Assembly: GCA_028700115.1 (NCBI GenBank)
Contig: JAQVTI010000004.1
Coordinates: 1-32,000, forward strand
Direction of reading: 5' to 3'
DNA from: Candidatus Iainarchaeum sp.
GTDB lineage: Archaea; Iainarchaeota; Iainarchaeia; Iainarchaeales; CSSED10-239
Length of the DNA: 32,000 nt
Each line of letters starts with the position of its first letter. Position 1 is the stretch's first letter. Below are positions 11,010-12,677 of the stretch, one piece after another. The notes below the pieces were generated by a model. It was given only the letters and a program-made list of their open reading frames with translations. It did no database searches and was not told the origin of the DNA. Both the position numbers and the translations under genes were made by a program.

Positions 11010-12677
11010 ATGAATAAAAAAATAATTTTTATAATATTATTTCTATTTATTGTATTTAATAATGTGGTTTTTTCAGAAAGGGATTTAAATTGTCAATATC
11101 AACATAATATTTTAATTAATTCAAATAAAGAAATTGTCCCTGTTTCTGTAGAAAATGATCAAGAGATTAATTATATAACTTATGAAATTTTAAATGGAAA
11201 TCAAGCCCCTATATTATTTAATAATCTTAATGATTTTAATGTGTGTATTTCCTTTAAAGTTAGAATATATGTTGATGATAGATTTATGGCAAGTGATTAT
11301 GATGAATCTGATAGAGAAATTTGTTTGTTGCCAGGTATTAATACTTATGATTTTTCACATTGGGCTGTTTTTTCTGAATCTAAATATGTGGAAGTATCTA
11401 ATTTAATTTATATAGAAAATGATTTTGTTCATTTTAAATCTATAGATAAAAATGAATATCAAACTGTATGTGATTTATGTTTAGATAAAGTTTGTTTAAA
11501 TGATGGATTTAATTGTTCTAATAATAATGAATGTGGTTCTGGATTTTGTGTACAAGGAATTTGTTCTAATATGGTAGATGGTAATTGTTATAATAATAAT
11601 TGTAATTGTTCTGAAAATGAAATTCAATTTAAAAATAAAATGTGTGTTTTAAAACATTCTGTAGAAAATGGTTCTATACCTATAACTGGACAAAAAGAAG
11701 AATGTATTTCTAATTATATTGATAATAATATTTGTGTAGTTCCTATTGGGGGTAATTGTAATTCTGATATAGATTGTGGTGATAATTATTGTGTAAGAAA
11801 TATCTGTAATTCTACTTTTGATTCATGTTATAAAAATGATTGTAATTGTTTGAATAATGAATTTCAATATAAAAATAAATGTATTCAAAAATATACTCTT
11901 GAAAATGGTTTTTATCCAGAAACTAATAACCCTTTAGAATGTATTTCTGGGAATATAAATCCTGAAACTGGGTTGTGTGATTTGAATGAATTTGATAAAT
12001 TAAAAAAAAGAAATAATACTTTAATATTGATTATTTTTATAATTTTAATTTTATTTATTTTTTATTTTATTTACTCTAAAAAGAATAAATTTAATTTATT
12101 AAAAGAAAAAAATAAGGGTAAGGAAATTGATTTTAATATAGAAAAAGAAAAAACTAATAGACTTGAAAAAGAAATTCAAAAAATTAATAGAACTATAGAG
12201 TTTAATATTAATGAAGAAAATAAACTTAATAAAAAAATTAAAAAAATTAAATCTAAAAAGAATAAAACAAAAAAAGAAGAATTAGAATTAAAAAAACATA
12301 TTTATAGTTATGAAAAATTAAATAAACATCTTTCTGATTTGAACCAAGATTTATTAAAAAAGAAAGAGTGTCTAAAAGCTGAAAGAAATAAAATTTATAA
12401 AAATGTATATGGTTGGGATGTTAAAATTAATGATTATGGTTATGAAATATTTGTAAATAGTAGACAATTAGTACATCTTTATGTTTATCGTAAATATATT
12501 GGAGATATAAAACCTAATTGTGAAATACATCATATTGATGGTAACAAATTAAATAATAATAAAAATAATTTAATTCAATTAACAAAATCACAACATAAAT
12601 TAATTTCTCATAGATGTATAAAAGATAGGGCTAGTGGTATTAAAGAATTAAAAAGAATAGGTGTAGTCATAGATTAA
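11010..12677 (+). CDS. membrane protein: signal peptide, two tandem 9-Cys modules, TM helix, K/E-rich coiled coil, C-terminal HNH_3-type endonuclease domain
   Basis: N-terminal MNKKIIFIILFLFIVFNNVVFS. Duplicated modules with C-x5-C-x4-C-x4-C-x6/7-C-x4-C-x-C spacing. TM segment TLILIIFIILILFIFYFIY is followed by a Lys-rich stretch. HNH block VHLYVYRKYIGDIKPNCEIHHIDGNKLNNNKNNLIQLTKSQHKLISH. Confidence 0.75.
   Translation: MNKKIIFIILFLFIVFNNVVFSERDLNCQYQHNILINSNKEIVPVSVENDQEINYITYEILNGNQAPILFNNLNDFNVCISFKVRIYVDDRFMASDYDESDREICLLPGINTYDFSHWAVFSESKYVEVSNLIYIENDFVHFKSIDKNEYQTVCDLCLDKVCLNDGFNCSNNNECGSGFCVQGICSNMVDGNCYNNNCNCSENEIQFKNKMCVLKHSVENGSIPITGQKEECISNYIDNNICVVPIGGNCNSDIDCGDNYCVRNICNSTFDSCYKNDCNCLNNEFQYKNKCIQKYTLENGFYPETNNPLECISGNINPETGLCDLNEFDKLKKRNNTLILIIFIILILFIFYFIYSKKNKFNLLKEKNKGKEIDFNIEKEKTNRLEKEIQKINRTIEFNINEENKLNKKIKKIKSKKNKTKKEELELKKHIYSYEKLNKHLSDLNQDLLKKKECLKAERNKIYKNVYGWDVKINDYGYEIFVNSRQLVHLYVYRKYIGDIKPNCEIHHIDGNKLNNNKNNLIQLTKSQHKLISHRCIKDRASGIKELKRIGVVID

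Follow-up and report, generated by a model that had tools for sequence, protein, structure and literature searches.

A DPANN family of membrane proteins combining a predicted Cys-rich ectodomain, cytoplasmic stalk and HNH nuclease

Introduction

The locus described here raises the question of why a DNA nuclease should be carried, within a single polypeptide, behind a signal peptide, a Cys-rich ectodomain and a membrane helix, and whether such a protein is real. The gene lies at positions 11010-12677 of a window of 32,000 nucleotides (the whole stretch of DNA that was analysed; contig JAQVTI010000004.1 of a Candidatus Iainarchaeum sp. assembly). The window is archaeal chromosome of ~21% GC, with genes for NMD3, an archaeal prepilin peptidase, a beta-CASP RNase and SMC, and the composition of the gene matches that of its own genome (GC 0.20 versus 0.21). 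A preliminary description, made from the sequence without database searches, had read the gene as an unusual chimera of an outward-facing Cys-rich domain, a transmembrane (TM) helix, a coiled coil and a cytoplasmic HNH_3 endonuclease. As a one-off this description does not hold, since 249 clusters or more make up the family of this protein; its reading of the parts, as set out below, has fared considerably better.

A continuous gene and its DPANN family

The open reading frame (ORF) runs without interruption across 555 amino acids (aa) on the forward strand, and its parts follow one another in the order signal peptide, beta-sandwich, two 10-Cys modules, one TM helix, heptad-repeat stalk and HNH_3 domain (Table 1). 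The identical 555-aa protein is encoded on an NCBI metagenome-assembled genome (MAG) contig (L003; GCA_028691725.1), the DNA of which is 99.9% identical to window positions 9695-19070, and again on two Logan assemblies from separate sequencing runs (L004 and L005). One continuous ORF, as originally supposed, is thus what three independent assemblies contain. A frameshift or assembly-fusion artefact is ruled out, because the signal peptide, the single TM helix and the C-terminal HNH domain, and with them the whole architecture, are kept in 87 cluster representatives from across the family.

A first search with the full-length protein returned three relatives with their parts in the same order, and a profile of the ectodomain then yielded more. 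Run with HMMER over 1.84 billion cluster representatives, this profile matched 249 proteins at E<=0.001 (195 at E<=1e-10), where each represents a cluster at 50% identity; 155 of the sequences were analysed in detail. A family hidden Markov model (HMM) finds a C-terminal HNH domain in 101 of these 155, of which 87 have the signal peptide and one internal TM helix as well. The survey of homologues that the preliminary description proposed has, in other words, produced a family in which more than half of the sequences examined show the full architecture. Those members to which a name is attached come without exception from DPANN archaea, namely Iainarchaeum (Iainarchaeota), Nanoarchaeia and Woesearchaeota, and the window protein is itself assigned by NCBI to Candidatus Iainarchaeum; this distribution fits the earlier guess that an episymbiont protein was in view. 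Some genomes have several paralogues, as with P0003 and P0007 from one MAG. A separate search for loci with narrow patterns drawn from a four-sequence alignment gave one locus in a GTDB genome and two in JGI data; the same narrow patterns found no relatives in IMG/VR viral contigs, an absence on which little weight can be placed.

Conservation is uneven along the protein. Mean pairwise identity is 18% in the beta-sandwich, 41% in the first Cys module and 35% in the HNH core, and the outermost domain is thus the least conserved and fastest-evolving part.

Ectodomain, membrane topology and stalk

The protein starts with a basic stretch followed by a 17-residue hydrophobic core and the sequence VFS|ERD. 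In homologues the residue at -1 is A or S and that at -3 is V, I or A. Beyond the predicted cleavage site lies a domain of ~130 aa, for which AlphaFold2 (AF2) predicts an all-beta sandwich (mean predicted local distance difference test score, pLDDT, of 77 for the whole ectodomain). Neither Pfam nor NCBIfam has a family that matches the ectodomain, and a Foldseek comparison of its AF2 model with PDB and BFVD gave nothing at E<=0.001, only generic beta-sandwich matches. The modelling and structural comparison suggested in the preliminary description have accordingly supplied a fold and no significant structural relative. The ectodomain defines a new extracellular domain family.

The Cys-rich part that follows consists of two true tandem repeats of ~80 residues each (48% identity, E=8e-19), which show in the DNA too as repeats with a spacing of 240 nt. 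Tandem modules had been correctly recognised at the outset, whereas the count of nine Cys in each falls one short: there are ten per module, at aa 169-242 and 250-323. Three more Cys (154, 157 and 162) precede the modules and three others lie in the N-terminal domain. Across the family the number of Cys-rich modules in a member varies from one to three.

Exactly two segments of the protein are hydrophobic, aa 1-24 and aa 333-359, the second of them a strongly hydrophobic TM stretch, and 26 of the 29 Cys residues fall between the two. The same partition is seen over 78 full-length members, in which Cys makes up 7.2% of the residues between the hydrophobic segments versus 0.35% of those after the TM helix. 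In these 78 members, moreover, the mean net charge of the 15 residues before the helix is -0.2 versus +1.6 for the 15 residues after it, a difference of 1.8 in the direction of the positive-inside rule. A J domain, which some members carry after the nuclease (see below), works with Hsp70 and ATP and hence belongs in the cytoplasm. The signal peptide with its single TM helix, the uneven distribution of Cys, the charge difference and the fused J domains all point the same way, and from them the Cys-rich part is predicted to be outside and the nuclease to be cytoplasmic, as the preliminary description also had it. The protein is, then, a predicted type I membrane protein.

After the helix comes a stalk of 106 aa with 30 K, 15 E and no Pro at all, the heptad periodicity of which stands out against shuffles (z=4.6), in keeping with the Lys-rich K/E coiled coil that had been noticed there. 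RNase Y, SMC and JetC match it weakly, each through its coiled coil. Stalk length among the 78 full-length members ranges from 22 to 288 residues, with a median of 110.

The HNH nuclease domain

The C-terminal domain matches HNH_3 (PF13392) over aa 487-530 with E=1.7e-11 and 44 bits, against a gathering cutoff of 24.8, such that the family assignment first made by eye is confirmed by HMM search. Phage HNH families among the PHROGs also match this domain, with E-values down to 7.8e-10. Six residues (H507, H508, D510, N520, L521 and H529) do not vary among 35 aligned domains of the family, and at H489 and N515 conservation is 90% or more; the motif HH.D...N...NL...H is present in most of the 101 HNH-bearing members. 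The AF2 model of the domain (pLDDT 94.2) places a strand, a strand and a helix around the motif, which is the beta-beta-alpha-metal fold. Loss of the catalytic His and Asn residues, or a non-nuclease fold, would have spoken against the original assignment; in the event all of these residues are in place, and the modelled fold is that of an HNH domain.

A Foldseek search of PDB with this model gave I-HmuI as best match, then Cas8f-HNH, IscB, Cap5, McrA and I-PpoI, all at E>=0.08, the domain being small. At the level of sequence, a profile of the family HNH domains was required for a match in PDB, again to I-HmuI (E=0.016); a single-sequence search of PDB with the HNH domain gave none. We take H508 to correspond to the general base His75 of I-HmuI, and H529 to stand at the position of its metal ligand Asn96, where a His is the variant seen in colicin-type HNH domains. 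From its sequence the nuclease domain looks active.

Two further observations concern this part of the protein. In about half of the family, and missing from the rest, a helix motif SG(I/L)xEL(K/R)R(I/L/V)G(I/V) follows the HNH core (aa 541-553 in the window protein, nt 12630-12668). At one locus (L019) a stand-alone HNH_3 protein of 78 aa is encoded divergently at 4084-4320 (-), 330 bp upstream of the membrane HNH gene, and is of the same subtype (GYPRF...VHRW...VHHKN...NL...H); it is possibly the source of, or a partner for, the fused domain.

Exchange of the predicted cytoplasmic domain

Behind the same ectodomain, TM helix and stalk, the cytoplasmic head is not always HNH_3. In P0090 it is the classical zinc-finger HNH domain PF01844, above cutoff, and P0074 has the same CxxC...HH...N...CxxCH motif. 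The heads of P0070 and P0128 resemble a domain found in UvrD-family helicases of plasmids, with ~33% identity and E-values down to 2e-9 (for P0070 the link was made by tblastn against plasmids), while P0071 and P0102 show PD...ExK-like motifs when read by eye. Searches of Pfam, NCBIfam and PDB sequences with these last four heads were without significant match, the best sub-threshold matches of P0071 being SduA_C (0.017) and Mrr_cat_2 (0.12), and a word-indexed protein search with the alternative C-terminal domains also gave no match. These heads are candidate restriction-endonuclease-like, or PD-(D/E)xK, domains, a label taken from eye-read motifs and weak matches.

In other members the HNH domain is joined by a further one. 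A J domain (PF00226, E from 1e-11 to 1e-14, with its HPD motif) follows HNH in four members, P0033 (L019 4653-6227), P0052, P0064 and P0083, and a Myb-like DNA-binding domain does so in P0113. There are also members with a coiled coil only or with a J-like domain, the latter in P0024 and P0049, which have HRD in place of HPD and no HNH. That HNH_3 is replaced by other nuclease-like domains, or joined by a J or Myb domain, suggests that the scaffold stays constant and that the cytoplasmic DNA effector which it bears can be swapped.

Genomic context

The gene stands at a different position in every genome, the loci being non-syntenic. In the window it is preceded by a repeat and a divergent gene and followed by the repeat again and an SMC gene, with no gene between its stop codon at 12677 and that SMC gene, the ATG of which is at 12811 in the NCBI annotation of L003. 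The features of the locus, and those of loci with an upstream partner gene, are collected in Table 1.

Table 1. Features of the HNH gene, its flanks and related loci (window positions unless a locus is named).
Feature	Position (nt)	Strand	Basis or remark
Whole ORF, 555 aa	11010..12677	+	NCBI MDD3178345.1 / MDD3975907.1, 'HNH endonuclease [Candidatus ainarchaeum sp.]'
Putative signal peptide, aa 1-22	11010..11075	+	MNKK start, hydrophobic core, VFS|ERD; cleavage inferred from -3/-1 rule
Predicted extracellular N-terminal beta-sandwich domain, aa 23-153	11076..11468	+	AF2 model all-beta
CxxCxxxxC linker and Cys-rich module 1, aa 154-243	11469..11738	+	10 Cys in module
Cys-rich module 2, aa 244-325	11739..11984	+	10 Cys; 48% identical to module 1
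Transmembrane helix, about aa 336-358	12015..12083	+	Hydrophobicity
Predicted cytoplasmic K/E-rich heptad-repeat stalk, aa 360-465	12087..12404	+	Composition, heptad periodicity
C-terminal HNH nuclease domain, aa 466-555	12405..12674	+	Pfam HNH_3 match aa 487-530 = nt 12468-12599
Direct repeat copy 1, 45 bp, perfect	10943..10987	+	TATA-like TTTATATA; ends 22 bp before ATG
Direct repeat copy 2	12684..12728	+	Begins 7 bp past stop codon; upstream of SMC gene
Schlafen AlbA_2 protein	1661-2464		
Type I restriction-modification HsdM/HsdS/HsdR	3219-9146		
128-aa protein	9158-9544		Weak matches only
DpnI-like methyl-directed restriction enzyme	9541-9975		PADLOC mREase_II 3e-8
297-aa protein, divergent from HNH gene	9993-10886	-	No Pfam, NCBIfam, PADLOC or PHROGs match; start region abuts repeat copy 1
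RHH gene, L001	9711-10004		
RHH gene, L009	7708-8004		
RHH gene, L016	5711-6004		
RHH gene, L017	5686-5991		

The two copies of the repeat are 45/45 identical with a spacing of 1741 bp, and no such pair arose in 100 shuffles. The repeat is also present on the independent NCBI contig, and two Logan contigs (1771 bp and 1756 bp) end inside it, their lengths fitting a graph break at an assumed k = 31. At a second locus (L006) the homologue P0001 is flanked by a 39/40-bp direct repeat at 102-141 and 2271-2310; here the repeat is a duplicate of the opening ~14 codons of a Nudix-like gene that lies downstream (MLLEEQIEELDLNGNI...), and the upstream copy reads ...MKEEQIEELDLNGNI and then a stop. The other 13 of the 15 loci have no comparable flanking repeats. 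A gene-free site was sought by way of the upstream neighbour protein, which returned only contigs that break at the repeat and was hence uninformative. Judged by sequence, the arrangement looks like what Campbell-type insertion of a single-gene cassette by way of short homology would leave, and the cassette may be excised as well; the 45-bp repeat could mark such insertion or excision, or could be a duplicated promoter.

Directly upstream of the membrane-protein gene in 4 of the 15 loci there is a gene for a ribbon-helix-helix (RHH) protein of 97-101 aa (CopG, PF01402), homologous from locus to locus. In L017 its stop codon is 9 bp upstream of the start codon of the membrane-protein gene; at the other three loci the two genes overlap at that start codon by 4 bp. 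The RHH proteins of three loci are 47-60% identical to one another, above the conservation of the membrane proteins, which at these loci are only ~30% identical. In the window tblastn finds no RHH homologue, and an antitoxin-like partner of the kind expected in a type II toxin-antitoxin (TA) system is a property of this subfamily only.

In the window the gene lies near the type I restriction-modification system, the DpnI-like gene and the Schlafen AlbA_2 gene of Table 1. Conflict-type neighbours elsewhere include DNA methyltransferases and KilA-N; ParE-, PIN-, MazE- and RelE-like TA genes; MmeI-like restriction-modification; Bro-N/MNT; and Fic. Read locus by locus, the gene often has such neighbours.

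As to the rest of the window, positions 1661-9975 form a defence island, and two ORFs 3' of SMC (287 aa and 618 aa; 16311-19045) have no Pfam or PHROGs matches. A scan for bacterial-type promoters and terminators gave sites no commoner than in shuffles, and is irrelevant to an archaeon. Beside both of the variants P0090 and P0070, whose heads are not HNH_3, a Fic-domain gene lies divergently upstream (L020 3104-4042 and L021 4212-4610). SoFic is enriched in DPANN archaea according to a recent survey (PMC12988326).

Proposed function and its alternatives

What, then, might such a protein do? The preliminary description knew of no described class of protein in which a DNA nuclease is tethered inside the membrane beneath a receptor-like domain. 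As regards the tethering this is outdated: SNIPE (PD-lambda-1) is a nuclease of that kind, without an ectodomain and unrelated in sequence (PMC13190303). We would give a probability of about 40%, the highest among the readings compared here, to the reading that the present protein is a membrane-tethered conflict or defence nuclease that cuts DNA on entry. On this reading the anchor and stalk would hold the nuclease at the inner membrane face, away from the chromosome; the variable ectodomain would bind something outside, whether a virus particle, a surface structure used by a virus or the zone of contact with a host; and the HNH head, probably a dimer, would cut DNA entering at that spot. That the protein is read as a conflict protein at all is because its outer tip diversifies, its nuclease heads are interchangeable, its genomic location is patchy and an RHH partner is at times present. 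The J domain found after HNH in four members, and the Myb domain so placed in a fifth, argue in turn that the head is cytoplasmic and that its target is DNA. The reading also draws on the conserved architecture and catalytic residues, the modelled HNH fold, the Cys and charge topology, the conflict-type neighbours and the SNIPE precedent.

Several points weigh against this defence reading. A search of PADLOC-DB 2.0 with four family members gave matches of coiled-coil type only (JetC, LmuB and DruC). With a stalk of 16-40 nm the nuclease would sit well clear of the membrane, a placement not clearly suited to cutting DNA at an entry pore. A nuclease is absent from about a third of the sequences, and while some of these come from truncated contigs, others are complete (P0007 and P0008). 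Several loci lie beside housekeeping genes (SerRS/GyrA, IF2 and SecY). The ectodomain has no recognisable fold relative that would point to a ligand. Moreover, the whole reading is built from sequence, models and analogy, and the viruses of these archaea, with the entry of their DNA, are essentially uncharted.

The translationally coupled RHH genes of divergent members suggest a different arrangement, in which the protein would be a sensor-triggered suicide or toxin module of the abortive-infection (Abi) kind: the ectodomain would sense adsorption or envelope damage, the stalk would transmit the signal or cluster the protein, and the nuclease, kept inactive until then, would degrade the DNA of its own cell, the restraint in some loci being RHH as antitoxin or repressor. 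TA genes are common nearby (ParE-, PIN-, MazE- and RelE-like, and Fic), exchangeable nuclease effectors are typical of Abi systems, and activation from outside in, or from envelope to cytoplasm, through long stalks does exist in Ire1 and Zorya. Set against this, the window and most other loci have no RHH partner, RHH proteins serve also as plain transcription regulators, there is no evident protease site or other mechanism of release, and DPANN genomes are tiny; constitutive tethering on the SNIPE model accounts for the same anatomy without any activation step. We regard the suicide module as unlikely. Decidedly unlikely, in our estimation, is a symbiosis factor, the ectodomain of which would grip the host archaeon at the contact site while the nuclease degrades host DNA or RNA crossing a cytoplasmic bridge, for nucleotide salvage. 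The confinement of the family to DPANN lineages, its Cys-rich and fast-evolving ectodomain, the multiple paralogues in one genome and the housekeeping context of some loci would all suit such a role; a lack of nucleotide synthesis, general among DPANN archaea, would have to be presumed for this genome. HNH_3 enzymes, however, nick or cut and are not processive degraders; no exonuclease or transporter is linked to the gene; and its patchy, non-syntenic spread, with TA and restriction-modification neighbours, suits a conflict gene better than core nutrition.

The flanking repeats bring in a further alternative, namely that HNH_3, as the family of I-HmuI and many phage homing enzymes, acts here as a homing-type endonuclease which spreads its own gene, the membrane part being cargo or an addiction function. 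The change of position from genome to genome and the repeats around the window gene and the L006 homologue are as a selfish mobile cassette would have them. Such repeats flank only 2 of 15 loci, though; the nuclease is swapped for unrelated ones, or absent, on the same scaffold; no NUMOD or helix-turn-helix (HTH) extension for DNA recognition is found (Pfam, E<=1); and tethering to the membrane is hard to square with site-specific cleavage of a chromosome. The GC content of the gene, close to that of the genome, and the lack of IMG/VR relatives with the patterns used add to the case against, and altogether the selfish cassette is improbable. At least as improbable is that the HNH domain is not used as a nuclease but as a DNA-binding module, which would tether DNA to the membrane or make the protein a membrane regulator of the ToxR/CadC type. 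A DNA-binding domain after HNH in the Myb-bearing member, the existence of members with only a coiled coil and the adjacency of the window gene to SMC are what speak for it. Yet the metal-binding and general-base residues are invariant family-wide, which would be unexpected of a purely structural HNH domain, the alternative C-terminal domains are also of nuclease type, and the adjacency to SMC is not kept at other loci.

A more specific form of the proposal may be put forward tentatively, and we hold it to be doubtful: that the protein is a DPANN-specific outside-in immune receptor in a single polypeptide. In this form the diversifying ectodomain would sense a virus or foreign surface, and a tunable stalk would position or activate an exchangeable nuclease head, with regulation in some lineages by RHH or, through the J domain, by Hsp70. 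The gene may move as a cassette by way of 40-45-bp repeats.

Significance

No description of this architecture in DPANN or other archaea was found in the literature, within a coverage that was not exhaustive. What is new is the family and the ectodomain that goes with it, the joining of this ectodomain to a stalk and a swappable nuclease, and the restriction to DPANN archaea. Few CRISPR and restriction-modification systems are found in these archaea (PMC12988326). Little is known of their dealings with viruses and host DNA, for which a single-gene family with 249 or more clusters offers a concrete candidate that can be put to the test. If the defence reading is true, then defence by location, in which a nuclease is held at the membrane, extends from bacteria to archaea with unrelated parts; as an outside-in immune receptor, should that more specific reading hold, the family would be the first archaeal counterpart of spatial self/non-self discrimination of the SNIPE type, and the first with a true extracellular sensing domain. 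If its function is instead the exploitation of a host, it bears on how episymbionts feed.

Comparison with known systems

Several known systems share parts of this design. Polymorphic toxins likewise have a conserved N-terminal part, variable C-terminal nucleases (HNH and PD-(D/E)xK) and patchy positions. Their toxin domains, however, are exported to a target cell and an immunity gene comes after, whereas the DPANN nuclease is predicted to be cytoplasmic and in some members carries a J domain; across the loci compared there is no conserved downstream immunity gene, and in the window the gap from stop codon to repeat is only 7 bp. RNase Y has a TM helix, a coiled coil and a nuclease in that same order. 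The NCBIfam RNase_Y model aligns with aa 338-464 at E=0.0012, far below its cutoff and through the composition of the TM helix and coiled coil only; RNase Y differs in its KH and HD domains, its RNA substrate and its lack of an ectodomain.

Zorya (ZorAB, with its long cytoplasmic tail) and Ire1 couple an event outside the cell or at the envelope to a cytoplasmic nuclease, by way of a long stalk or of oligomerisation. Zorya differs in being a multi-protein, ion-driven motor that recruits separate nucleases, and its PADLOC models do not match the DPANN protein; Ire1 is a eukaryotic kinase-RNase, and neither is related to the DPANN protein in sequence.

As regards the nuclease itself, the nearest relative is I-HmuI, with the phage HNH_3 enzymes (PF13392). 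The C-terminal ~70 residues belong to the same family, 1U3E is the best match in PDB by both sequence and fold, and the motif GY...VH...(D/H)HxDxxxxNNxxxNL is common to both. I-HmuI is nevertheless a soluble, free-standing homing enzyme with NUMOD/HTH extensions for binding DNA, whereas the DPANN HNH domain has no such DNA-recognition extension and ends a membrane protein, with a predicted place in the cytoplasm. The last metal ligand also differs, being Asn in I-HmuI and H529 in the DPANN protein, where a further His often follows 4-5 residues later, as in HNH domains of the colicin type.

In overall design the closest parallel is SNIPE, a single-pass membrane protein whose cytoplasmic GIY-YIG nuclease cuts phage DNA during injection (PMC13190303, Nature 2026). 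Without its anchor SNIPE attacks the chromosome, and experiment has shown that tethering is what gives it discrimination between self and non-self (PMC13190303). SNIPE has a single-pass anchor, an elongated cytoplasmic middle and a C-terminal DNA nuclease, a layout that is predicted for the DPANN protein as well; the N-terminal region is the least conserved in SNIPE homologues too, with the nuclease as the function under selection. The parts themselves are different: SNIPE has DUF4041 and GIY-YIG, neither of which is in the DPANN protein (Pfam, E<=1), and it is bacterial, with a short periplasmic N-terminus and no ectodomain, whereas the ectodomain of the DPANN protein is large. By this analogy the DPANN protein would work like SNIPE without being a member of its family, the two having no homology and sharing a likeness of design only.

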